Assembly (NCBI RefSeq): GCF_013315695.1
Contig: NZ_CP054353.1
DNA length: 64,000 nt
Direction: 5' to 3' (one strand)
From: Escherichia coli
GTDB lineage: Bacteria > Pseudomonadota > Gammaproteobacteria > Enterobacterales > Enterobacteriaceae
The position numbers and the translations under genes are program-made. Below the pieces are notes generated by a model. The model was given only the letters and a program-made list of their open reading frames with translations. It had not been told where the DNA came from and ran no database searches. Positions 24,392-38,332 of the stretch are shown piece after piece (within the stretch, counting starts at the first letter, position 1; the number at the start of each line of letters is the position of its first letter).

Positions 24392-25089
24392 TGCAGGATA
24401 TCCGGCAGGAAACACTGAATGAATGCACCCGTGCGGAGCAGTCGGCCAGCGTGGTGCTCTGGGAAATCGACCTGACAGAGGTCGGTGGAGAACGTTATTT
24501 TTTCTGTAATGAGCAGAACGAAAAAGGTGAGCCGGTCACCTGGCAGGGGCGACAGTATCAGCCGTATCCCATTCAGGGGAGCGGTTTTGAACTGAATGGC
24601 AAAGGCACCAGTACGCGCCCCACGCTGACGGTTTCTAACCTGTACGGTATGGTCACCGGGATGGCGGAAGATATGCAGAGTCTGGTCGGCGGAACGGTGG
24701 TCCGGCGTAAGGTTTACGCCCGTTTTCTGGATGCGGTGAACTTCGTCAACGGAAACAGTTACGCCGATCCGGAGCAGGAGGTGATCAGCCGCTGGCGCAT
24801 TGAGCAGTGCAGCGAACTGAGCGCGGTGAGTGCCTCCTTTGTACTGTCCACGCCGACGGAAACGGATGGCGCTGTTTTTCCGGGACGTATCATGCTGGCC
24901 AACACCTGCACCTGGACCTATCGCGGTGACGAGTGCGGTTATAGCGGTCCGGCTGTCGCGGATGAATATGACCAGCCAACGTCCGATATCACGAAGGATA
25001 AATGCAGCAAATGCCTGAGCGGTTGTAAGTTCCGCAATAACGTCGGCAACTTTGGCGGCTTCCTTTCCATTAACAAACTTTCGCAGTAA
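24391..25089 (+). CDS. L: tail tip protein L
   Basis: 232 aa. C-terminal Cys cluster (CTWTYRGDECGY...CSKCLSGC). Confidence 0.9.
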   Translation: MQDIRQETLNECTRAEQSASVVLWEIDLTEVGGERYFFCNEQNEKGEPVTWQGRQYQPYPIQGSGFELNGKGTSTRPTLTVSNLYGMVTGMAEDMQSLVGGTVVRRKVYARFLDAVNFVNGNSYADPEQEVISRWRIEQCSELSAVSASFVLSTPTETDGAVFPGRIMLANTCTWTYRGDECGYSGPAVADEYDQPTSDITKDKCSKCLSGCKFRNNVGNFGGFLSINKLSQ

Positions 25090-26467: not shown

Positions 26468-29400
26468 ATGGGTAAAGGAAGCAGTAAGGGGCATACCCCG
26501 CGCGAAGCGAAGGACAACCTGAAGTCCACGCAGTTGCTGAGTGTGATCGATGCCATCAGCGAAGGGCCGGTTGAAGGTCCGGTGGATGGATTAAAAAGCG
26601 TGCTGCTGAACAGTACGCCGGTGCTGGACACTGAGGGGAATACCAACATCTCCGGTGTCACGGTGGTGTTCCGTGCCGGTGAGCAGGAGCAGACACCGCC
26701 GGAGGGGTTTGAATCCTCCGGCTCCGAGACGGTGCTGGGTACGGAAGTGAAATATGACACGCCGATCACCCGCACCATTACGTCTGCAAACATCGACCGT
26801 CTGCGCTTTACCTTCGGTGTACAGGCACTGGTGGAAACCACCTCAAAGGGTGACAGGAATCCGTCGGAAGTCCGTCTGCTGGTTCAGATACAACGTAACG
26901 GTGGCTGGGTGACGGAAAAAGACATCACCATTAAGGGCAAAACCACCTCGCAGTATCTGGCCTCGGTGGTGGTGGGTAACCTGCCGCCGCGCCCGTTTAA
27001 TATCCGGATGCGCAGGATGACGCCGGACAGCACCACAGACCAGCTGCAGAACAAAACGCTCTGGTCGTCATACACCGAAATCATCGATGTGAAACAGTGC
27101 TACCCGAACACGGCACTGGTCGGCGTGCAGGTGGACTCGGAGCAGTTCGGCAGCCAGCAGGTGAGCCGTAATTATCATCTTCGCGGGCGCATTCTGCAGG
27201 TGCCGTCGAACTATAACCCGCAGACGCGGCAATACAGCGGTATCTGGGACGGAACGTTTAAGCCGGCATACAGCAACAACCCGGCCTGGTGTCTGTGGGA
27301 TATGCTGACCCACCCGCGCTACGGCATGGGGAAACGTCTTGGTGCGGCGGATGTGGATAAATGGGCGCTGTATGTCATCGGCCAGTACTGCGACCAGTCA
27401 GTGCCGGACGGTTTTGGCGGCACGGAGCCGCGCATCACCTGTAATGCCTGGCTGACCACGCAGCGTAAGGCGTGGGATGTGCTCAGTGATTTCTGCTCGG
27501 CGATGCGCTGTATGCCGGTATGGAACGGGCAGACGCTGACGTTCGTGCAGGACCGACCATCAGATAAGGTGTGGACCTATAACCGCAGTAATGTGGTGAT
27601 GCCGGATGATGGCGCGCCGTTCCGCTACAGCTTCAGCGCCCTGAAGGACCGCCATAATGCCGTTGAGGTGAACTGGATTGACCCGAACAACGGCTGGGAG
27701 ACGGCGACAGAGCTTGTTGAAGATACGCAGGCCATTGTCCGTTACGGTCGTAATGTCACGAAGATGGATGCCTTTGGCTGTACCAGCCGGGGGCAGGCAC
27801 ACCGCGCCGGGCTGTGGCTGATTAAAACTGAACTGCTGGAGACGCAGACCGTGGATTTCAGCGTGGGTGCTGAAGGGCTTCGCCATGTACCGGGCGATGT
27901 CATTGAAATCTGCGATGATGACTATGCCGGTATCAGCACCGGTGGTCGCGTGCTGGCGGTGAACAGCCAGACCCGGACGCTGACGCTCGACCGTGAAATC
28001 ACGCTGCCATCCTCCGGTACCACGCTGATAAGCCTGGTTGACGGAAGTGGTAATCCGGTCAGCGTGGAGGTTCAGTCCGTCACCGACGGACTTAAGGTGA
28101 AAGTGAACCGGGTTCCTGACGGCGTTGCAGAATACAGTGTGTGGGGGCTGAAGTTGCCGACGTTGCGTCAGCGCCTGTTCCGCTGTGTGAGTATCCGTGA
28201 GAACGATGACGGCACGTATGCCATCACTGCCGTGCAGCATGTACCGGAAAAAGAAGCCATCGTGGATAACGGGGCGCACTTTGACGGCGACCAGAGCGGC
28301 ACGGTGAATGGTGTCACGCCGCCAGCGGTGCAGCACCTGACCGCCGAAGTCACCGCAGACAGCGGGGAATATCAGGTGCTGGCGCGCTGGGACACGCCGA
28401 AGGTGGTGAAGGGCGTGAGCTTCCTGCTCCGTCTGACCGTAACAGCGGATGACGGCAGTGAGCGGCTGGTCAGCACGGCCCGGACGACGGAAACCACATA
28501 CCGCTTCACGCAACTGGCGCTGGGGAACTACAGACTGACAGTCCGGGCGGTAAATGCGTGGGGGCAGCAGGGCGATCCGGCGTCGGTATCGTTCCGGATT
28601 GCCGCACCGGCAGCACCGTCGAGGATTGAGCTGACGCCGGGCTATTTTCAGATAACCGCCACGCCGCATCTTGCCGTTTATGACCCGACGGTACAGTTTG
28701 AGTTCTGGTTCTCGGAAAAGCGGATTACCGATATCAGGCAGGTTGAAACCACAGCCCGCTATCTTGGTACGGCGCTGTACTGGATAGCCGCCAGTATCAA
28801 TATCAAACCGGGCCATGATTATTACTTTTATATCCGCAGTGTGAACACCGTTGGCAAATCGGCATTCGTGGAGGCTGTCGGTCAGGCGAGCGATGATGCG
28901 GAAGGTTACCTGGATTTTTTCAAAGGCCAGATAACCGAATCCCATCTCGGCAAGGAGCTGCTGGAAAAAGTCGAGCTGACGGAGGATAACGCCAGCAGAC
29001 TGGAGGAGTTTTCGAAAGAGTGGCAGGACGCTAACGATAAGTGGAATGCCATGTGGGGCGTCAAAATTGAGCAGACCAAAGACGGCAAACATTATGTCGC
29101 GGGTATTGGCCTCAGCATGGAGGACACGGAAGAAGGCAAGCTGAGCCAGTTTCTGGTTGCCGCTAACCGTATCGCGTTTATTGACCCGGCAAACGGGAAT
29201 GAAACGCCGATGTTTGTGGCGCAGGGCAATCAGATATTTATGAACGACGTGTTCCTGAAGCGCCTGACGGCCCCGACCATTACCAGTGGTGGAAATCCAC
29301 CGGCATTTTCCCTGACATCAGACGGAAAGCTGACCGCTAAAAATGCGGATATCAGTGGCAGAGTGAATGCGAACGCCGGGACGCTCAACAATGTCACGGT

Positions 29401-29881
29401 AAATGAAAACTGTACGATTAAGGGCATGCTGGAGGCGACTCAGGTCAGAGGTGACTTCGTTAAAGCTGTATCCAAATCATTCCCGAAACAGGCTGGTACG
29501 TGGGGTAACACGGAAACACCAAACGGGACGGTTACAGTCACCATCAGCGATGATCATAACTTTGACCGTCAAATCATTATTCCGCCCATTATCTTTAACG
29601 GAATAGCGTATAGCGATCCGGGAAGTGGTAATAACCCGGGAGGTACAAGATACACGGGTTATGGTTTTGAAGTTCGCAAAAACGGTGTATTAATCGCATC
29701 CAGAGAAACTAAAGGGGCCATTCCCGGTAGCTACAGTGCGGTTATTGATATGCCGAGTGGCAGGGGAAGCGTCACTCTGGAGTTTAAGGTTTTCCATAAA
29801 GGCAATCAGTGGGCAGGTAATATCACCGACTGTACGGTGATTGTGACCAAAAAAGCCGCTTCCGGCATCAGTATTCGTTGA
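26468..29881 (+). CDS. J: central tail fibre / host-specificity protein J with a non-lambda C-terminal receptor-binding region
   Basis: 1137 aa (lambda gpJ is 1132 as I recall). Lambda-like to about residue 960-980, after which the sequence departs from my memory of lambda J. Confidence 0.95.
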
Positions 29882-29950: not shown

Positions 29951-30550
29951 ATGCGTAAACTTTATGCCGCCATTTTGTCCGCAGCCATTTGTCTGGCCGT
30001 ATCCGGTGCGCCTGCATGGGCATCTGAACATCAGTCCACGCTGAGCGCGGGGTATCTTCATGCCCGGACCAACGTTCCCGGCAGTGATGATCTGAACGGG
30101 ATTAACGTGAAATACCGTTATGAGTTTACGGATACGCTGGGGCTGGTGACGTCATTCAGCTATGCAGGAGACAAGAATCGCCAGCTGACCCGTTACAGCG
30201 ATACCAGCTGGCATGAAGATTCCGTGCGTAACCGCTGGTTCAGCGTGATGGCGGGGCCGTCTGTGCGCGTGAATGAATGGTTCAGCGCGTATGCGATGGC
30301 GGGTATGGCTTACAGCCGTGTTTCGACTTTTTCCGGGGATTACCTTCGCGTAACTGACAACAAGGGGAAAACGCACGATGTGCTGACCGGAAGTGATGAC
30401 GGTCGCCACAGCAACACGTCTCTGGCGTGGGGGGCTGGCGTGCAGTTTAACCCGACCGAATCCGTGGCCATTGATATTGCTTATGAAGGTTCTGGCAGTG
30501 GTGACTGGCGCACTGACGGTTTCATCGTGGGTGTCGGTTATAAATTCTGA
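29951..30550 (+). CDS. lom: Ail/Lom-family outer-membrane protein Lom
   Basis: 199 aa. Signal peptide MRKLYAAILSAAICLAVSGAPAWA and an 8-strand beta-barrel ending GFIVGVGYKF. Confidence 0.9.
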   Translation: MRKLYAAILSAAICLAVSGAPAWASEHQSTLSAGYLHARTNVPGSDDLNGINVKYRYEFTDTLGLVTSFSYAGDKNRQLTRYSDTSWHEDSVRNRWFSVMAGPSVRVNEWFSAYAMAGMAYSRVSTFSGDYLRVTDNKGKTHDVLTGSDDGRHSNTSLAWGAGVQFNPTESVAIDIAYEGSGSGDWRTDGFIVGVGYKF

Positions 30551-30614: not shown

Positions 30615-33011
30615 ATGGCAGTAAAGATTTCAGGTGTACTGAAAGACGGCACAGGAAAACCGGTACAGAACTGCTCAATCCAGCTGAAAGCAAAACGTAA
30701 CAGCACCACGGTGGTAGTGAACACGCTGGCCTCAGAAAATCCGGATGAAGCCGGGCGTTACAGTATGGATGTTGAGTATGGCCAGTACAGCGTTATCCTG
30801 CTGGTTGAAGGTTTTTCGCCTTCACATGCCGGGACCATCACCGTGTATGAAGATTCTAAGCCGGGGACGCTGAATGATTTTCTCGGTGCCATGACGGAAG
30901 ATGATGTCATGCCGGAGGCATTGCGTCGTTTTGAGGAAATGGTGGAAGAAGCGGCACGCAACGCTGAAGCCGCCTCTCAGAGCGCAGCGGCGGCAAAGAA
31001 ATCCGAAACTGCAGCGGCATCATCGAAGAACGCGGCGAAAACCTCAGAAACGAATGCAGCTAATAGTGCACAGGCGGCAGCGACCTCAAAGACTGCATCG
31101 GCAAACTCCGCGACAGCAGCCAAAAAATCAGAAACCAACGCGAAAAATAGCGAGACAGCCGCAAAGACGAGCGAAACCAACGCAAAGTCCAGCCAGACGG
31201 CAGCGAAAACCAGCGAAACGAATGCCAAAGCCAGTGAAACTGCGGCAAAAAACAGCCAGGTTGCAGCAGCCCAAAGCGAGAGCGCGGCAGCCGGTTCTGC
31301 GACTTCAGCAGCTGGATCAGCAACTGCTGCGGCTAACAGCCAGAAAGCTGCGAAGACGAGTGAAACTAACGCAAAGTCCAGCCAGACGGCAGCGAAGACC
31401 AGCGAAACGAATGCCAAAGCCAGCGAAACTGCGGCGAAAAACAGTCAGGATGCAGCAGCCCAAAGCGAGAGTGCTGCAGCTGGTTCTGCAAGCGCGGCGG
31501 CTGCTTCTGCCACTGCATCAGCCAACAGTCAAAAAGCAGCAAAAACCAGTGAAACCAATGCAAAGACAAGCGAGACTGCAGCGGCGAACTCGGCGAAAGC
31601 ATCGGCAGCAAGCCAGACAGCAGCTAAAGCAAGTGAAGACGCAGCCAGAGAGTATGCAAGTCAGGCAGCAGAGCCGTATAAATATGTCTTACAGCCACTG
31701 CCTGATGTGTGGATACCGTTTAACGATTCACTGGATATGATTACGGGCTTTTCGCCGTCATATAAAAAAATTGTTATTGGTGATGATGAAATAACGATGC
31801 CTGGCGACAAGGTTGTTAAGTTTAAACGCGCATCAACTGCCACATATATCAATAAATCAGGCGTATTTAGTGTTGCTAAAATTGATGAGCCACGATTTGA
31901 AAAAGAAGGTTTATTGATTGAAGGACAGCGCACTAACTATTTTGTTAAATCCAATACTCCCGCTGAATGGACGAGTACCAGCAATATCGATAAAACTAAT
32001 AATGGTGTTGATGAATTTGGTTTTTCATATGCCAAAATGCGAACAAAAGATAATATGACAGGACAATCATCTGCACTTAGTCTGCATACATGCAGTGCAT
32101 CCCGGGGGATTGATGTTAGTGGCGATAATAAGTATTGCACTGTTTCATGCAGGGTTAAAGCTCCTGATGGTCTTCGTTGTCGTTTGCGTTTTGAAAAATA
32201 CGATGGGTCGGTTTATACATTTTTAGGAGATGCTTATTTAACTTTCGGAACTCTGATAATAGAAAAAACTGGCGGAGCAGCCAATAGAATAGCAGCTACT
32301 GCAACTAAAGATCCGGTTACAGGGTGGATTTTCTATGAGGCAACTATAGAAGCTGTTGAAGGTGAAACCTTAATTGGCGCAATGATTCAGTATGCGCCGA
32401 AAAAAGGTGGTATAACTGAAGCGGGAGATTATATTTACCTTGCAACACCACAATTTGAAAACGGCGGATGTGCTTCATCTTTTGTTATTACGACAACTGC
32501 ACCCGCAACCCGCTCCAGTGATATGGTGACGATCCCAACTGAAAATAATATCTATAATAGACCGCTTACGTGTCTTGTCGAGGTTAATAGAAATTGGGGC
32601 GATATTCCTCCTAATGTAGCACCGCGTATTTTTGATTTTTCTGGTGTGCCACCTATTGAGTCAATTACATACGCTTTTAACACAACTGAGAAATATTACG
32701 GTCAGCTTTATATGCAAACTTATAAAGCGTCGACAAGTACTTACGTTTCTAGTGTGTTTGCTGGTCGAGCTGATGTTCGAAAATTCATTGGTGGTTTTAA
32801 TATTTATTCTGATGGTACTAAACGAGTAGTTTCTAACGGTGAGGCTACTAAAACTATGAAAACGGAGTGGACGGGCGTAAAAACACGGACCTTTATTCGA
32901 ATTGGAGGTCAAGCCACATCGGGAACTCGTCATCTATTCGGCCATTTGAGAAATCTTCGTCTCTGGCATAAAGAATTAACTGATGCGCAAATGGGGGAGA
33001 GTATTAAATGA
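30615..33011 (+). CDS. stf: side tail fibre protein (chimeric): lambda Stf-like N terminus, SETNA-type repeats, novel low-GC distal domain
   Basis: 798-aa uninterrupted ORF. N terminus MAVKISGVLKDGTGKPVQNC... is lambda Stf-like. Residues ~120-345 are Ala/Ser/Thr/Lys repeats. The C-terminal ~450 aa are AT-rich and end in a LamG/ConA-lectin-like signature (HLFGHLRNLRLWHKELTDAQM). Confidence 0.85.
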   Translation: MAVKISGVLKDGTGKPVQNCSIQLKAKRNSTTVVVNTLASENPDEAGRYSMDVEYGQYSVILLVEGFSPSHAGTITVYEDSKPGTLNDFLGAMTEDDVMPEALRRFEEMVEEAARNAEAASQSAAAAKKSETAAASSKNAAKTSETNAANSAQAAATSKTASANSATAAKKSETNAKNSETAAKTSETNAKSSQTAAKTSETNAKASETAAKNSQVAAAQSESAAAGSATSAAGSATAAANSQKAAKTSETNAKSSQTAAKTSETNAKASETAAKNSQDAAAQSESAAAGSASAAAASATASANSQKAAKTSETNAKTSETAAANSAKASAASQTAAKASEDAAREYASQAAEPYKYVLQPLPDVWIPFNDSLDMITGFSPSYKKIVIGDDEITMPGDKVVKFKRASTATYINKSGVFSVAKIDEPRFEKEGLLIEGQRTNYFVKSNTPAEWTSTSNIDKTNNGVDEFGFSYAKMRTKDNMTGQSSALSLHTCSASRGIDVSGDNKYCTVSCRVKAPDGLRCRLRFEKYDGSVYTFLGDAYLTFGTLIIEKTGGAANRIAATATKDPVTGWIFYEATIEAVEGETLIGAMIQYAPKKGGITEAGDYIYLATPQFENGGCASSFVITTTAPATRSSDMVTIPTENNIYNRPLTCLVEVNRNWGDIPPNVAPRIFDFSGVPPIESITYAFNTTEKYYGQLYMQTYKASTSTYVSSVFAGRADVRKFIGGFNIYSDGTKRVVSNGEATKTMKTEWTGVKTRTFIRIGGQATSGTRHLFGHLRNLRLWHKELTDAQMGESIK
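31158..31535 (+). repeat. 189-bp (63-codon) tandem duplication inside stf
   Basis: AAKTSETNAKSSQTAAKTSETNAKASETAAKNSQ.AAAQSESAAAGSA... occurs twice head to tail (31158-31346 and 31347-31535). The first ~125 nt of the two units are nearly identical. Confidence 0.85.
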
Positions 33012-33289
33012 AAGATTTAACACTCAAATTTGCAGACAGGGCCGACTTTTCGGCCTTTATGGAGAGCATTGGCTATTATGATGACGAGTCGATGCAGGAT
33101 GATATTCTTATTGACGTGATAGGTAATGTGTACAAAGAAACCGGAGAACTTACTGAAGATGGCGAGCCGGTATGTGTTAAGGAGGACGGATATTTTGTAA
33201 ATGTGCGCATCATTAATGATTCGCAAATATCGTCATTATTCGATGAATACGTGGTTGCTGTTGAGCATCAACTCCGTAGCTGGATGTGA
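33008..33289 (+). CDS. hypothetical acidic 93-aa protein, translationally coupled to stf
   Basis: ATGA overlap with the stf stop (33008-33011). No family recognised, and it does not resemble Tfa chaperones. Confidence 0.45.
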   Translation: MKDLTLKFADRADFSAFMESIGYYDDESMQDDILIDVIGNVYKETGELTEDGEPVCVKEDGYFVNVRIINDSQISSLFDEYVVAVEHQLRSWM

Positions 33290-33298
33290 GGAAGAAAA

Positions 33299-34003
33299 AT
33301 GGCTACATCGACAGTAATTCCTGATGACATCAAAACGCTAAAGGGAGATGTCAGTAAGGCAAAGGAAGATATTTCCTCAATTAACGTAAAAGTATCAACG
33401 CTTCAGACTGATATGGACAGTGCAAAGCAGGATATCAGTACCAGATACACAAAAACAGAAGTGGATAATAAGCTGAAAAACAAAGTGGAAGTGAACGATC
33501 TGGAAAGTGGTCGTTATGGCGGAGATTTTTACCCGCTGACTGGCCGTGAAGCGTTTTATTTATGGGGATTGGGCACAACTACAGCGGCGGCAAATCTTTA
33601 TCTTAATCCTGACCCTGCAATTTCGTCTGTGCTGCGGTCAACATCGTCTATCCGCTATAAACATTCAGTAGAGACGATAGATTCAGAGCACGCCGATCTC
33701 ATTTTCAGGATGCGCCCTGTGTGGTACAGGTCGCAATGCGAAAATGACAGGCGTGACTGGGGATTCTATGGATTGATTGCCGAGGAAGTAGGAGAAATTG
33801 CCCCTCAGTTTGTTCACTGGCGACCAGCCAACGAAGATGATGCACCGGAAACCATTTCCAGCAATGGCCTTGTTGCCGAAGGTGTAATGTACGAACGTCT
33901 GGTTGTTCCACTGATTCACCATATCCAGAAACTGACTGAAAGAGTTGATGAACTTGAGTCAGAATTGAAGTTGTTATCAACTTCCCAAAGCGATATCGGA
34001 TAA
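33299..34003 (+). CDS. short tail-fibre-like protein with a C-terminal peptidase-S74 intramolecular-chaperone domain
   Basis: 234 aa. GAGGA RBS. N-terminal coiled coil (DIKTLKGDVSKAKEDISSINVKVSTLQTDMDSAKQDIS). C-terminal S74 pattern SSIRYKHSVETID..ADLIFRMRPVWYRS..FYGLIAEEVGEIAPQFV..VMYERLVVPLIHHIQKLTERVDELESELK. Confidence 0.65.
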   Translation: MATSTVIPDDIKTLKGDVSKAKEDISSINVKVSTLQTDMDSAKQDISTRYTKTEVDNKLKNKVEVNDLESGRYGGDFYPLTGREAFYLWGLGTTTAAANLYLNPDPAISSVLRSTSSIRYKHSVETIDSEHADLIFRMRPVWYRSQCENDRRDWGFYGLIAEEVGEIAPQFVHWRPANEDDAPETISSNGLVAEGVMYERLVVPLIHHIQKLTERVDELESELKLLSTSQSDIG

Positions 34004-34013
34004 AGGAGGAGTA

Positions 34014-34307
34014 ATGGATATAACACCTTTTCTTCATGCGCTTTGTGCTGTGGCTGCGCAGGTAATGATTGGTCTTTTTGCCGGAAACTGGGTTTACGGG
34101 GCGATAGCCGGTTGTACGTTCTTCATTGCGCGTGAACACACCCAGGCAGAATATCGCTGGATTGAAATGTTCGGGCATGGCAAGTGGATTAACATGCCGT
34201 GGTGGGGCGGTTTTGATCCGCGTGTTTGGGATGTGGCAAGCCTGATAGATTTTGCTGTGCCGGTGGTGGCGTGTCTGCTGGTCTGGCTGTTGGTTAATCG
34301 TGGGTGA
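34014..34307 (+). CDS. small integral membrane protein (97 aa, about 3 TM segments)
   Basis: ORF 10 nt after the preceding stop, with GGAGGAG upstream. Hydrophobic segments FLHALCAVAAQVMIGLFAG, VYGAIAGCTFFIA and LIDFAVPVVACLLVWLLV. No family recognised. Confidence 0.5.
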   Translation: MDITPFLHALCAVAAQVMIGLFAGNWVYGAIAGCTFFIAREHTQAEYRWIEMFGHGKWINMPWWGGFDPRVWDVASLIDFAVPVVACLLVWLLVNRG

Positions 34308-34326: not shown

Positions 34327-34446
34327 GCAACGGAGGAAGAAACCCCGTTGCTGGAAGCCTGGAAAAAGTATCGGGTGTTGCTGAACCGTGTTGATACATC
34401 AACTGCACCTGATATTGAGTGGCCTACGAACCCTGTCAGGGAGTAA
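34327..34446 (+). pseudogene. tfaD: remnant of a tail-fibre assembly gene (Tfa C-terminal 39 codons only)
   Basis: Hand translation gives [39 protein letters not shown], the conserved Tfa C terminus. No upstream part of the gene is present. Confidence 0.6.
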
Positions 34447-34500: not shown

Positions 34501-35169
34501 CTATTTTTTCCCTGAAGCGGAAAACATTACTACAGTACCTTGAACCTTGGTTTTAACATTCTCGAAATGCTCTGAGAGTATATGTGTTAAGCCTTCTTCG
34601 GAATCTTTTGTGTTTGAAAAGATGCCTTTCTGATTGTAAATGCGCATCAGTTTTTGACCGAAGCTATTGTGCACAACTCCATCGCCAAGAATTGTGGCTC
34701 CGTATAGAGTTCCATCGTCAGTTAAGGCCTGCGCCGCATTGCGTATTACACAGCTTTTTGTAGATATATTTCCAGGCAGGCAGTGAAGAAGGTAAAACAT
34801 GGAAATGGAATCAAATTGACCATGTAACGCCGCGGGATAAGGTTCAAAAACATCATGGCTAATTTTATGTTTAATTTTTGATTCCCCAGCCCTTGTAGAT
34901 GCCGCGTTCAGGCTAGCTTCGTTCAAATCCATTAAAGATATCAGACTACTCTCAGGTACGTGAGTAAGGTAAAACCCAGTTCCAACACCAATATCCAGAT
35001 GGTTGTTACCTAAATGTTCCAGAAAGTGTGGAAGAAGGTGTTCCTTTGTAGGACATCCCCATGCAAGCCGATTTGATACTCCCAAAACCCACCAGTCATA
35101 AAGCTTTAGGGTAAGTGGTGTGTAAATTTTAGCCCCATCATCTGTGTTTTTTTTCATTAATTTCACCAT
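34501..35169 (-). CDS. ybcY: class I SAM-dependent methyltransferase (YbcY type), intact
   Basis: 222-aa ORF (alternative start at Met5, 35157, has GGTGA upstream). SAM-binding motif HLDIGVGTGFYL. Confidence 0.8.
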   Translation of the reverse strand: MVKLMKKNTDDGAKIYTPLTLKLYDWWVLGVSNRLAWGCPTKEHLLPHFLEHLGNNHLDIGVGTGFYLTHVPESSLISLMDLNEASLNAASTRAGESKIKHKISHDVFEPYPAALHGQFDSISMFYLLHCLPGNISTKSCVIRNAAQALTDDGTLYGATILGDGVVHNSFGQKLMRIYNQKGIFSNTKDSEEGLTHILSEHFENVKTKVQGTVVMFSASGKK

Positions 35170-35225: not shown

Positions 35226-35524
35226 ATGCTGCCGCAGCATAGCGATATTGAAATAGCCTGGTATGCTTCGATACAGCAGGAGCCGAATGGCTGGAAGACC
35301 GTCACCACACAGTTCTACATCCAGGAATTCAGTGAGTATATTGCGCCACTGCAGGATGCTGGGAAATCGCAACGGAGGAAGAAAGATCGTTGCTGGAGGC
35401 ATGGAATAAATATCGGGTATTGTTGAATCATGTTGATACATCAGTAGCTCTGGGTATGAAGCTGTTTGTAACTCATGTTACAGTAACAGCCATTACTATC
35501 TCGAAGGTGCAAAATGTATATTGA
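35226..35524 (+). pseudogene. tfaX: frameshifted tail-fibre assembly gene remnant (TfaX-like)
   Basis: Track ORF 35226-35426 ([45 protein letters not shown]...) loses the Tfa frame near 35360. The conserved ...[25 protein letters not shown]... continues in another frame to 35524. Confidence 0.6.
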
Positions 35525-35710: not shown

Positions 35711-37192
35711 TTATATTTCTGCTTCAGAATTTCCTGGGCAGTATATATTTTCTATTTTTTGTGGAGTGATCAGGTGATGTACAACTGCTTTATCTACACA
35801 TAAATTAACTCCGGTGAGAGCTAATGTATGCCCATCACCATTTATTGTTAGTAACGGGCTGGAAAATTTCTCTGCCATCTTACGGGCATTAATCCAGGGC
35901 GTTGTTGGGTCGTATTTGTGTGCTACAAACAGTAAACCAGAGGGCAGAACAGTATTTTTCAGGCGAGTTTTGTTCAGGTCGCTATGTATTGGCCATAATT
36001 CACAAAAATCAGGTGAATCGGAACGTCCATTGTCAAAGTTAATAGCCGGGAAGGCATTCGCAAGAGCGTCTTTTCGGGATTTTCGCTCTTCTGGTGTTAA
36101 TTGCTCATCCCCCTGATCTACACAGAGGATTACCCCCGAAGCATCGCTTGACTCTTCTGAGGCTATCTGAGCACTGAGCGCAGTTTCAATTTCATTACTG
36201 ACAATCCCCTGAGAGAACTGGCGTATGGCAGTTGCAAGGGTTGGCCATGATGAACGCCATAGCAGAAGGTCTGTTGTTAATGATATGAGTTCATCTGAAG
36301 ATATATTTTCTCCCTTACTGTCTAATAAAGGTTTGTGATGTAATTTTGATAATAGCTCATGGAACTGAGTTATTGCCTTATCTCTGTCTGAAGAAAGCGG
36401 GCAACTTTTTGTACGCGCACACCAGGATGCAAAGCGATCAAACGTTTCCTGATAACTCTGTGCCTGTTTGAGTTGCCATGTGAAGTTGTCCTCCAGGTCA
36501 TCGATATCGACGACTCCATCAAGAACGATAGATCTTACGTTGTAGGGAAAACGTTCTGCATATAAGGCTGCAATTTGAGTTCCATACGAATACGCCACGG
36601 CTGTCAGTTGTTTATCCCCCAAGGCTTGCCTAATACGATCAATATCGTATACAGCCTCGTTAGAGCCGATATGGCGAATGACTTCGGCTCCGGTATTATG
36701 GATACAGGCATTAATTTTATTTAATACTTGTTGCTTTTCGGTTATGTTTTCCTGAGTCTCTGTATCTGATTGCCGGCAGTTTATTGTCGGAGTGGACTGT
36801 CCGACGCCTCGAGGATCAAATCCAATAATATCCCATGACTCACGAAGATTTGTGACTGGCCAGTCAAAGTTAATATAAGGATTTATGCCTGGTAACCCGG
36901 GACCACCACTTATTATCAGGATACTTCCTTTATGCTTGCTTTTTGCCGGCAATTTTGTCAACGCTAGTTTGACTTGTGATTTTTTTTCATAAGAAGCATC
37001 TCCGCCTGTGTCTGTATATTTTAATGGAACAGACAAATAACCACATAGTAAGTCAGGAGACGGTTTTTCCTCACCAAACCAGTGGTTGAATTGACTGGCC
37101 ATACAGGATTGCCACTGTATCTGCTGGGCAGATACGGTTACTGGTAGAAGTAACGTTAAAACAACTTTGAAATGAGTAATTATTTTTCGCAT
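35711..37192 (-). CDS. secreted alpha/beta-hydrolase serine peptidase (S33 / TAP-like tripeptidyl-aminopeptidase family)
   Basis: 493 aa. Signal peptide MRKIITHFKVVLTLLLPVTVSA|QQ. Nucleophile elbow VAYSYGT. C-terminal Asp (KYDPTTPW) and His (INGDGHT). AT-rich codon usage. Confidence 0.75.
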   Translation of the reverse strand: MRKIITHFKVVLTLLLPVTVSAQQIQWQSCMASQFNHWFGEEKPSPDLLCGYLSVPLKYTDTGGDASYEKKSQVKLALTKLPAKSKHKGSILIISGGPGLPGINPYINFDWPVTNLRESWDIIGFDPRGVGQSTPTINCRQSDTETQENITEKQQVLNKINACIHNTGAEVIRHIGSNEAVYDIDRIRQALGDKQLTAVAYSYGTQIAALYAERFPYNVRSIVLDGVVDIDDLEDNFTWQLKQAQSYQETFDRFASWCARTKSCPLSSDRDKAITQFHELLSKLHHKPLLDSKGENISSDELISLTTDLLLWRSSWPTLATAIRQFSQGIVSNEIETALSAQIASEESSDASGVILCVDQGDEQLTPEERKSRKDALANAFPAINFDNGRSDSPDFCELWPIHSDLNKTRLKNTVLPSGLLFVAHKYDPTTPWINARKMAEKFSSPLLTINGDGHTLALTGVNLCVDKAVVHHLITPQKIENIYCPGNSEAEI

Positions 37193-37330
37193 TGTGTCTC
37201 TGAATATCGGAATAAAGATAAGATTTGAATATATTGAGGTCTTGTGTTGCGGTAAGAGATTACACGTTATGACATAGGTTAAATGCTTACAAAATTAGTG
37301 GATATTGTCTACTTGTAACTGTAAACAAAT

Positions 37331-37359
37331 TCCCCGGGGTTATACAATACCACCGGGGA
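37331..37359 (-). terminator. ompT terminator hairpin
   Basis: TCCCCGG...CCGGGGA stem 20 nt below the ompT stop. Followed on the minus strand by ATTTGTTT. Confidence 0.5.
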
Positions 37360-37378
37360 GAAAATCTGGTTAACTTCG

Positions 37379-38332
37379 TTAAAAGGTGTACTTAAGACCA
37401 GCAGTAGTGATGAAGTTATAGTTTTCTATGCCTGCACCATTTTTGCTGTAGTCTGAAGTGTTATCATTGTGATCATAAAGTGAAGTATTACCTTTTTTAT
37501 TCGTAACCCGATTCCATGCGCCTTCAACATAAACTTTTGCGTTAGGTGTTACGTAATAACCTGCATTGACTGCAACAGAATAGTAATTTTGGTCTTTGAC
37601 TTTACTGCGATAAGTGATTCTTTTTCCTGGGTCATAGTGCTCATCGTTATCAGATGCTTCCACCCAGCCGCTGTATTTAAATGTGCCACCTAGCTCAAAA
37701 TCTTCATAACGATAACTTCCAGTCAAGCCAATGTAGGGCATTTTAAAACGTTGTTTGTAGCCGATTGCTCTTTCTCCATTCGGGAAGGAGCCGATATCAT
37801 CTCTGAATCCCTCCTCAGAACTGTAGATATAGGAACCACCTCTGGCTGTAAAGCTATAACGGCTTTCCTGATATCCGGCCATGAGTCCCAGGCGGTAATT
37901 GGGTTCGTTGAGGAGCCAGCCTTTGATATTCAGATCAAATTCGTTGGCATAATTGAGTTGTGTATCAGGGTGCCTACTTTCATCTGTCCAGGTTCCGGGG
38001 TTACTGGAATCCATCCAGTCCTGATCGACCATATTGCCACCTCGGCTGCCGAGAGTAGTCCAGCCCGCAGCCCCAATAGATATCTGGGGCATCAAATCCC
38101 AATTAATTGCACCTTTAATAATTGCAGCGTTATTGAATTTCCAGTCGAGTTGACTGACTTTTCGGCCTCCTTCTTCAGCTAGATAAACGCGCTCTTTTGT
38201 TTTTCCGCTCAGAGTTCCAAGACTAATGTCCGCATTTATGTTGTCAGGAGTAAACGATATAGTCTCGGTAGAAGCAAAAGAGCTGATCGCAATAGGGGTT
38301 GTCAGGACTATTCCCAGAAGTTTCGCCCGCAT
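37379..38332 (-). CDS. ompT: outer-membrane aspartyl (omptin) protease OmpT
   Basis: 317 aa MRAKLLGIVLTTPIAISSFA... ending TTAGLKYTF. Recognised as OmpT. Confidence 0.95.
   Translation of the reverse strand: MRAKLLGIVLTTPIAISSFASTETISFTPDNINADISLGTLSGKTKERVYLAEEGGRKVSQLDWKFNNAAIIKGAINWDLMPQISIGAAGWTTLGSRGGNMVDQDWMDSSNPGTWTDESRHPDTQLNYANEFDLNIKGWLLNEPNYRLGLMAGYQESRYSFTARGGSYIYSSEEGFRDDIGSFPNGERAIGYKQRFKMPYIGLTGSYRYEDFELGGTFKYSGWVEASDNDEHYDPGKRITYRSKVKDQNYYSVAVNAGYYVTPNAKVYVEGAWNRVTNKKGNTSLYDHNDNTSDYSKNGAGIENYNFITTAGLKYTF

Follow-up and report, generated by a model that had tools for sequence, protein, structure and literature searches.

Lateral tail fibres of phages may, according to the part of the first BASEL paper that deals with them, comprise one, two or more proteins. 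Passages of the work on phages DT57C and DT571/2 describe two fibre proteins, LtfA and LtfB, in which the second, a fibre with an S74 chaperone, is carried on the first and not on the tail (Golomidova 2016, Ayala 2023). For the Tequintavirus IrisVonRoten (Bas32), the passages on Gp22-Gp24 of a preprint present Gp24 as a T-shaped distal fibre with a C-terminal chaperone, attached to the proximal fibre Gp22 in an AlphaFold-Multimer model, and give the C-terminus of Gp22 a protruding galectin-like domain (Humolli et al., bioRxiv 10.1101/2024.09.12.612763). Here we describe three small genes, called g1, g2 and g3, which directly follow the side tail fibre gene stf of a lambdoid prophage in Escherichia coli; they lie in a stretch of 64,000 nucleotides (nt) of contig NZ_CP054353.1 (assembly GCF_013315695.1), which we call the window and whose positions are used as coordinates throughout. 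The cassette is one lambdoid representative of a two-segment lateral-fibre module which is widespread, is present in databases and has been modelled in part in the literature. The three genes form the far end of this prophage's late side-tail-fibre operon, and we consider it probable that they build, together with Stf, a fibre in two segments.

IrisVonRoten has the same gene order, and Stf, g1 and g2 are homologous to its Gp22, Gp23 and Gp24. Residues 130-797 of Stf are 45% identical to Gp22 over 749 aligned positions, the galectin/LamG-type end included, g1 is 39% identical by tblastn (24739-25011; 38% in a protein alignment) to Gp23, which has 92 amino acids (aa), and g2 shares with Gp24 both an N-terminal motif (39% identity over g2 residues 1-28 by BLASTP) and the C-terminal chaperone domain (E = 3.6e-07 over that region). 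The loci differ in the fibre anchor, which is T5-type in IrisVonRoten and of the lambda Stf type (phage_tail_N) here, in the size of the distal protein (Gp24 has 574 aa with two receptor-binding domains, whereas g2 has 234 aa and none that is recognisable) and in that g3 follows here and not there; the attachment of Gp24 is itself only an AlphaFold-Multimer model. By homology to this modelled set of three proteins, docking of a further fibre on Stf, which an earlier note on this DNA had listed among several possible roles, is the best-supported of its ideas.

A fibre ending in a LamG domain, a g1 homologue and an S74 protein also stand together in KarlJaspers (Bas06), VogelGryff (Bas25) and ESCO3, of the Drexlerviridae and Queuovirinae, and in KarlJaspers the S74 protein has the same mini form as g2 (225 aa, 59% identical over the full length, pre-cleavage part included). 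These loci differ from the window in belonging to virulent phages, in having other N-terminal fibre anchors and in lacking g3; their g2 homologues bear the label ‘putative lateral tail fiber chaperone’ or ‘endosialidase chaperone’. The gene after g2 in the virulent phages encodes, in place of g3, a Gly-rich protein of about 235 aa with a Cys-rich end (...TPPTGCCG; L008 4617-5318, L003 6580-7290), which is labelled ‘putative sugar-binding protein’ in KarlJaspers. DT57C and DT571/2 resemble the window in that, as in the arrangement proposed here, one fibre would be carried on another, and among PDB sequences g2 has its best match in the chaperone region of DT57C LtfA; they differ in that LtfA itself ends in an S74 chaperone and not in a LamG domain, and in that passages of the two papers mention no small open reading frame (ORF) between the two genes. 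On the role of the small ORF nothing is said in passages of the DT57C papers, of both BASEL papers and of the rV5 proteomics paper, and nothing relevant was found in a lambdoid co-transfer paper or in a lambda Stf-engineering preprint.

In position the cassette is like the Stf-Tfa pair of lambda (and the fibre-Tfa pairs of Mu and P2), as it follows J and lom, carries the Stf anchor and has a small gene directly after the fibre gene, but it differs in having no intact Tfa in the stretch examined, in that g1 has no Caudo_TAP match and another predicted fold, and in the LamG-type end of the fibre. The three tightly spaced ORFs on one strand that the earlier note had described are all present, including the acidic first ORF whose ATG overlaps the stf stop codon (coordinates of all features are given in the table), and they do occupy the tfa position, the stretch examined holding no intact tfa and only two pseudogene remnants of it. 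The note's reading that tfa had been replaced holds as far as the site is concerned; this is not a simple replacement, as one of the Tfa remnants still lies behind g3. Its description of the genes as AT-rich applies to g1 and g2 (41.5% and 44.7% GC) and to the Stf tip (40.6%) but not to g3 (52.0%, compared to a window mean of 51.1%). No promoter or terminator was found on the plus strand within the cassette by a simple scan, which is weak evidence, and so the cassette looks like the tail end of a late operon; independent transcription of g3 as a moron was considered and is unsupported by the same scan, with the same weakness.

Table. Features of the side-tail-fibre locus, in window positions.
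Feature	Position	Strand	Remarks
J	26468-29881		upstream of lom
lom	29951-30550		between J and stf; one intact 199-aa ORF
stf	30615-33011	+	side tail fibre, 798 aa
Stf tip	32412-33008	+	C-terminal ~200 aa; ConA/LamG-type (‘galectin-like’) domain ending in RHLFGHLRNLRLWHKELTDAQ
Joint DNA block	32928-33342	+	final 84 nt of stf, the whole of g1 and the initial ~44 nt of g2
g1	33008-33289	+	93 aa; ATG overlaps stf stop (ATGA)
g2	33299-34003	+	234 aa; ribosome-binding site GAGGAAG at 33288-33294, four bases upstream
g2 N-terminal motif	33299-33376	+	aa 1-26 (MATSTVIPDDIKTLKG...); proposed docking element for the Stf/g1 joint
g2 coiled-coil stalk	33326-33508	+	aa ~10-70; weak sub-threshold Pfam matches, heptad indels
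g2 pre-cleavage segment	33509-33643	+	aa 71-115; conserved; sole candidate binding tip of the mature protein
g2 S74 chaperone	33644-34000	+	aa 116-234; predicted autocleavage at Ser116 (33644-33646), with Lys121 (33659-33661)
g3	34014-34307	+	97 aa; AAGGAGG at 34003-34009; 10 nt after g2
Tfa pseudogene remnant	34327-34446	+	C-terminal ~39 aa, from translation; directly after g3
Second Tfa remnant	~35319-35524		second incomplete tail fibre assembly gene

All three are real genes under purifying selection. The pairwise ratio of nonsynonymous to synonymous substitution rates (dN/dS) against diverged alleles, taken only from pairs with unsaturated dS, was 0.06-0.37 for g1, 0.19-0.23 for g2 and 0.18-0.50 for g3. 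The earlier note had called the cassette unrecognised and had placed g1 and g3 in no family, which does not stand: g1 matches PHROG 1361 over its full length (E = 2.7e-46), residues 1-96 of g3 match positions 1-96 of the 97 in PHROG 1443 (E = 2.3e-56), and many deposited phage genomes carry annotations of the module. The same 2.2-kilobase (kb) stretch is found 99.9% identical in phage PhiR49_1 (host in the record, E. coli ECOR13), and 182 of 5,426 complete E. coli genomes carry at least 80% of it. In the PhiR49_1 record (L001 2543-3156) lom is annotated as two coding sequences, compared to the single ORF in the window.

Stf begins with a lambda-type anchor (aa 1-131, Pfam phage_tail_N, E = 1.2e-68), matches PHROG 1419 over its full length and has a shaft of Ala/Ser/Thr-rich repeats. 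Within the shaft, 31149-31583 is a tandem repeat of 189 bp (63 aa) in 2.3 copies with 83% match, which has nested periodicities of 21 and 42 bp and a strong AT skew. Residues 434-634 (31914-32516) match the NCBIfam model GTA_spike_fiber, the ‘phage head spike fiber’ of the Rhodobacter gene transfer agent, at 58 bits; separately, the structure 6tb9 of the RcGTA head spike fibre is matched over a short stretch by a profile built from the C-terminal ~200 aa of Stf. The tip is probably of LamG type, as the earlier note had supposed: Pfam Laminin_G_3 (PF13385) matches all of nine diverse homologous tips (best E = 8.2e-06), while the window's own tip scores 20.7 bits (E = 5.1e-04), under the cut-off of 27.6. 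An alignment of the tips has 37 invariant columns, and in the loci compared the fibres upstream of g1 all end in RHLFGH[IV]RN[FL]R[IV]WHK.LTD.

This fibre end is accompanied by g1 with few departures. In tblastn searches against phage records, homologues of g1 were found in 183 records, from lambdoid phages (2G7b, Tritos, IdasGreatGrand, phage 21, ev243), Drexlerviridae, Dhillonvirus, Queuovirinae, T5-like and rV5-like phages, and the LamG-type tip was found in 205 records with the same mix of taxa and with coordinates that adjoin those of g1. The start of g1 coincides with the end of a lateral or side tail fibre gene in every locus inspected, and with the end of a LamG tip in all cases checked, which came from lambdoid phages, Drexlerviridae, Queuovirinae, T5-like and rV5-like phages; the Dhillonvirus records also contain both the tip and g1. 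The shared taxa and the abutting coordinates together indicate that the LamG-type fibre end and g1 are a near-obligate adjacent pair. Clustered at 50% identity, the hits of an exhaustive HMMER search with g1 came to just 52 clusters. Their proteins almost all have about 90-110 aa, and in none of the clusters was g1 fused to a fibre protein; two large hits (P0161 and P0162) consisted of repeated short matches and were judged to be spurious. AlphaFold2 predicts g1 to be an alpha/beta protein with a pLDDT confidence score of 84, and it has no match in NCBIfam or PADLOC. It has 21 acidic and 7 basic residues and an isoelectric point (pI) of 4.05, which is complementary in charge to the last 200 aa of Stf (pI 9.06).

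We favour g1 as a protein that would bind the LamG-type end of Stf and contribute to a docking platform, and which would then be a part of the virion, but there is a serious rival in which g1 is solely a non-structural assembly chaperone for the LamG-tipped Stf, an analogue of Tfa or gp38 that stays outside virions, with g2 attaching directly to Stf. The gene is at the canonical chaperone position, directly after the fibre gene and with coupled translation, and the acidic protein faces a basic tip, which would suit a chaperone. Some observations also weigh against g1 as a joint protein: it is retained in phages without g2 (phage 21, ev243, PhiR41_1 and the rV5-like phages), so that holding g2 cannot be its core role, and these cases suit a non-structural chaperone just as well; and the 92-aa protein is undiscussed as a fibre part in the passages of Humolli et al. 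on the Gp22-Gp24 model. Set against the chaperone role, g1 has no sequence, profile or predicted fold similarity to Tfa (Caudo_TAP), nor does it resemble any other known fibre chaperone in sequence or fold. It stays 92-100% identical while the tips diverge to about 40% identity, which means that it does not track the variable surface of the tip, and the docking motif of g2 was found only where g1 is. Single beta-sandwich lectin domains usually fold unaided, which makes the need for such a chaperone doubtful. On balance a purely chaperone role for g1 is possible, but we would not expect it to be the answer.

The second gene encodes the fibre segment that would sit on this platform. The S74 pattern noticed earlier in g2 was borne out by a hidden Markov model (HMM) search, in which aa 116-172 match Peptidase_S74 (PF13884) at 27.3 bits against a gathering cut-off of 22 and cover positions 1-57 of the 58 in the profile, and phmmer against the PDB aligned g2 with the C-terminal chaperone region of DT57C LtfA (8hqz_d, E = 4.9e-07) and with the ICA domain of MYRF (7dc3, E = 0.022). 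Taken together, the Pfam and LtfA matches agree with the earlier description of g2 as an S74 fibre protein with almost no body. A Ser/Lys(+5) dyad is a feature of the endosialidase (endoNF) and T5 pb1 chaperones; residues S116-S-I-R-Y-K121 of g2 align with S-G-I-E-Y-K in DT57C LtfA, and SSIRYK or SSERYK is kept in Idas, R55 and KarlJaspers. Cleavage at Ser116, as predicted from these residues, would leave 115 aa, close to the ~120 aa expected in the earlier note. Thus g2 is like the S74 chaperones of K1F endosialidase, T5 pb1, phi29 gp12 and MYRF in its above-threshold HMM match, in the spacing of Ser and Lys and in the place of the domain C-terminal to a trimeric stalk, but it differs from them in that its cargo is unusually small, with a predicted mature part of 115 aa, and in that its autocleavage is predicted only. 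The stalk has weak Pfam matches below threshold (Tropomyosin, E = 0.0024, and LPP), and g2 alleles of 227, 234 and 241 aa (L007, L014, L077 and others) differ by exact 7-residue indels in this part, as expected of a coiled coil that is kept in register. The segment between the stalk and the cleavage site is strongly conserved between the window and KarlJaspers (GxFYPLT..EA.Y...L.TTTA.ANLYLNPD.A.SSVLRSTS).

An N-terminal motif of the form M-x-T-x-T-x-IP-x-DI-x-x-LK in g2 and Gp24 is common to the g2 homologues of ESCO3, 2G7b, PhiR55_1, KarlJaspers and VogelGryff and to Gp24 of IrisVonRoten. Of the enterobacterial tblastn hits listed, those beginning at residue 1 for which g1 coordinates were available all have the motif beside a g1 gene. 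The T5-like relatives of Gp24 that follow a g1 gene align from residue 1, whereas relatives in Gordonclarkvirinae, in Wifcevirus and in LtfA of DT571/2, which are attached by other means, align only from residue 27-49 and so match Gp24 without the motif. Since the Gp24 relatives that do not follow g1 lack this stretch, the first ~26 residues of g2 appear to be an element specific to the joint.

That the mature tip of g2 has only ~45 aa, which is very small for a receptor-binding domain, counts against a fibre in two segments and brings in the possibility that the 234-aa g2 is no fibre segment at all and is either a trans-acting folding factor for Stf, as the earlier note had also suggested, or the decayed remnant of a longer fibre gene. 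It would agree with this that so little lies between the coiled coil and the cleavage site, that g2, matched over its full length, aligns with only the C-terminal end of its PHROG profile (PHROG 3299, positions 1147-1384 of 1385, E = 4.9e-139) and that the KarlJaspers and VogelGryff homologues are annotated as a chaperone (in BASEL, the ‘putative lateral tail fiber chaperone’ given above). However, the ORF is intact, with dN/dS of about 0.2 and indels in heptad units, and its full-length match in a virulent phage is found where dead genes would be expected to be lost fast, and a decayed pseudogene is ruled out by the intact, conserved KarlJaspers homologue together with the low dN/dS. S74 chaperones act in cis, as in endosialidase and T5 pb1, which is at odds with a trans-acting g2, and the Stf proteins of phage 21 type have no g2 gene alongside. 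Furthermore, conservation is as good in the mature 115 aa as in the chaperone domain, and the allelic partners of g2, of 346-574 aa, are full receptor-binding fibres; both make a purely trans-acting folding module unlikely, and we regard the whole alternative as improbable.

We therefore return to g2 as a distal fibre segment, and to the way in which it is exchanged. A search of IMG/VR with the single g1 protein as query gave 80 loci, all of them close relatives (g1 92-100% identical), and the order stf, g1, g2, g3 is constant in every locus whose sequence reaches far enough. A complete ORF of the g2 family is present in 70 loci, being of the mini form (227-241 aa) in 28, of a long form (345-347 aa) in 38 and of other lengths in 4, and g3 follows in 60 of the 66 loci that have the mini or the long allele. 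The Stf tips of these loci are ~100%, 77%, 50-60% or 40-49% identical to that of the window, and both g2 alleles occur with each tip class for which the g2 ORF is complete (the one locus at 77% is truncated at its contig end). Alleles of the Stf tip and of g2 thus reassort freely around g1, which stays nearly constant. That the trio might travel with this particular allele of stf, a co-occurrence which the earlier note had put up for testing, is contradicted by this survey, as tips that are 40-100% identical combine with either g2 allele (234 aa or 346 aa); the trio is tied to the LamG-type class of tips and not to the stf allele of the window.

The joint itself is visible at nucleotide level. 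The joint DNA block (table) matches the virulent Nonagvirus vB_EcoS_ESCO3 at 90.1% nt identity and several lambdoid phages at 92-95%, while the upstream stf of most such phages has no megablast match to the window and the receptor-binding parts that flank the block vary. A block of 90% nt identity with ESCO3 between differing flanks suggests recent exchange between temperate and virulent phages at the fibre joint.

The third gene behaves differently. AlphaFold2 predicts three helices in g3 (residues 4-23, 26-53 and 74-96, pLDDT 91), in agreement with the roughly three membrane-spanning segments read from the sequence earlier. The family has 556 homologues at E <= 0.001, none of them with a Pfam domain, and in it the loop REHTQAEYRWI...MPWWGGFD is near-invariant, as are D2, H8, Q16 and D79, from Escherichia to Aeromonas, Comamonas and Leclercia. 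No match to g3 was found in Pfam, NCBIfam or PADLOC. When 32 homologues were scanned against Pfam, only noise resulted, and a profile search of the PDB with g3 was empty. In the phage collection g3 occurs mainly in temperate or prophage-derived phages, at the boundary of the tail genes with accessory or integration genes, and the genes in front of it are of many kinds. Homologues lie directly after a P22-like tailspike in JEP4, after a Tfa in phiHAP-1, after an S74 fibre in a P2/HP1-like Leclercia prophage and in Desulfovibrio, after a LamG-ended protein in Chelativorans and after DUF4376 proteins in Pantoea and Halomonas; in Comamonas the homologue is near a J-like protein, with a 72-aa ORF in between. 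Proteins 55-90% identical to g3 are found behind receptor-binding proteins whose specificities are unrelated, and the prophages concerned are of siphovirus, podovirus and myovirus type and come from several genera; identity holds at 55-65% across genera and behind such unrelated proteins. There are also chromosomal members (loci L097, L142, L154, L162 and L163): one in Aeromonas adjoins a pirin gene and has two lipid A acyltransferase paralogues nearby, and others adjoin ligA or pnp in Sphingomonas arvum and in several unclassified alphaproteobacterial assemblies.

This distribution, over unrelated receptor-binding genes, several genera and chromosomal loci, argues against the masking of one specific receptor by g3; a conserved envelope feature as the target of g3 would suit it better. 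The earlier note had proposed a Cor-like role, and superinfection exclusion in the manner of Cor or of HK97 gp15, blocking the receptor or the entry of DNA for phages with the same J or Stf allele, has to be weighed here. Like Cor (phi80, N15, HK022), HK97 gp15 and T4 Imm, g3 is a small (predicted) membrane protein beside tail genes in mainly temperate phages, and the JEP4 homologue is flanked by the tailspike gene and int, at a spot that holds conversion genes in P22-like phages. This likeness is one of position; no similarity of g3 to Cor or to a described exclusion or defence family was found, g3 has no own promoter predicted by the simple scan and is closely spaced behind g2, and it does not co-vary with the alleles of Stf or g2. 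It differs from these proteins also in being kept behind unrelated receptor-binding proteins, in having relatives in chromosomal housekeeping contexts and in its enzyme-like invariant loop, the polar residues of which look more like an active or ligand-binding site. Exclusion of this type is therefore an unlikely role for g3.

The DNA behind g3 records the history of the locus. In a genome with 100% identity to the whole 2.2-kb query, the Prokaryotic Genome Annotation Pipeline calls both Tfa remnants incomplete tail fibre assembly genes, the first under the label ‘tail fiber assembly protein, incomplete, missing N-terminus’. Both are relics of older stf-tfa modules, and the first marks the site of a displaced one. 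Between the two lie a ybcY-like S-adenosylmethionine methyltransferase gene (34501-35169, minus strand) and a DinI remnant. Further on, 35711-38332 on the minus strand holds genes for an alpha/beta hydrolase (493 aa) and ompT, with envY beyond, a region which presumably resembles the right arm of the K-12 prophage DLP12. Since the hydrolase and ompT lie within the phage genome in the records of PhiR49_1 and 2G7b, OmpT appears to travel as phage cargo.

We propose that Stf would be the proximal fibre, with its lambda-type anchor, its repeat shaft and a basic C-terminal domain of LamG/galectin type, and that g1, made by translational coupling with Stf, would bind this end, aid its folding or register and form or complete a platform for the next segment. 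The distal segment would be g2, with a docking motif of ~26 residues, a heptad coiled-coil stalk and a tip of ~45 residues; its S74 chaperone would trimerise it in cis and then cut itself off at Ser116 to give the mature mini-fibre. Co-transcribed with these, g3 would be an inner-membrane protein of three helices, a member of a family found in prophages directly behind receptor-binding genes of many kinds, and it may act on a conserved feature of the cell envelope, in late infection or in the lysogen, and not on one particular receptor. A bolder proposal, which we make tentatively, is that the LamG end, g1 and the ~26-aa motif of g2 are a universal plug-and-socket joint, and, separately, that g3 represents a new enzyme-like family of small membrane proteins that alters a conserved feature of the envelope.

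As a discovery this is modest, as the module is already in databases and the logic of a fibre on a fibre has already been proposed in print; what is added here is the near-obligate pairing of the LamG end with g1, the N-terminal motif of g2 that is specific to the joint, the free reassortment of receptor-binding parts around a conserved joint, and the unusual conservation and distribution of g3. Both g1 (PHROG 1361) and g3 (PHROG 1443) are common proteins in E. coli genomes, and rules can now be given for them: g1 goes with LamG-ended fibres, and g3, with its invariant polar loop, goes with receptor-binding genes of any type. Side tail fibres determine which strains are adsorbed by a lambdoid phage or by a lambda-based delivery particle. 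If the joint is universal, g1 would be a new family of structural fibre-joint adaptors. If the three parts indeed make up a conserved joint, distal fibres of T5-like, T1-like or 9g-like phages would be movable onto a lambda chassis, a rule for host-range engineering in which the unit to transplant would be the block from the last ~30 codons of stf onward; this would also explain the sharp recombination boundaries seen between the prophage and the virulent Nonagvirus. If the proposal for g3 is right, membrane proteins of its type would be attached by prophages to receptor-binding genes of any architecture, and, if that for the joint is right, lambdoid, T1-like, 9g-like and T5-like phages, probably Dhillonvirus and in part the rV5-like phages would swap their distal fibres as cassettes.

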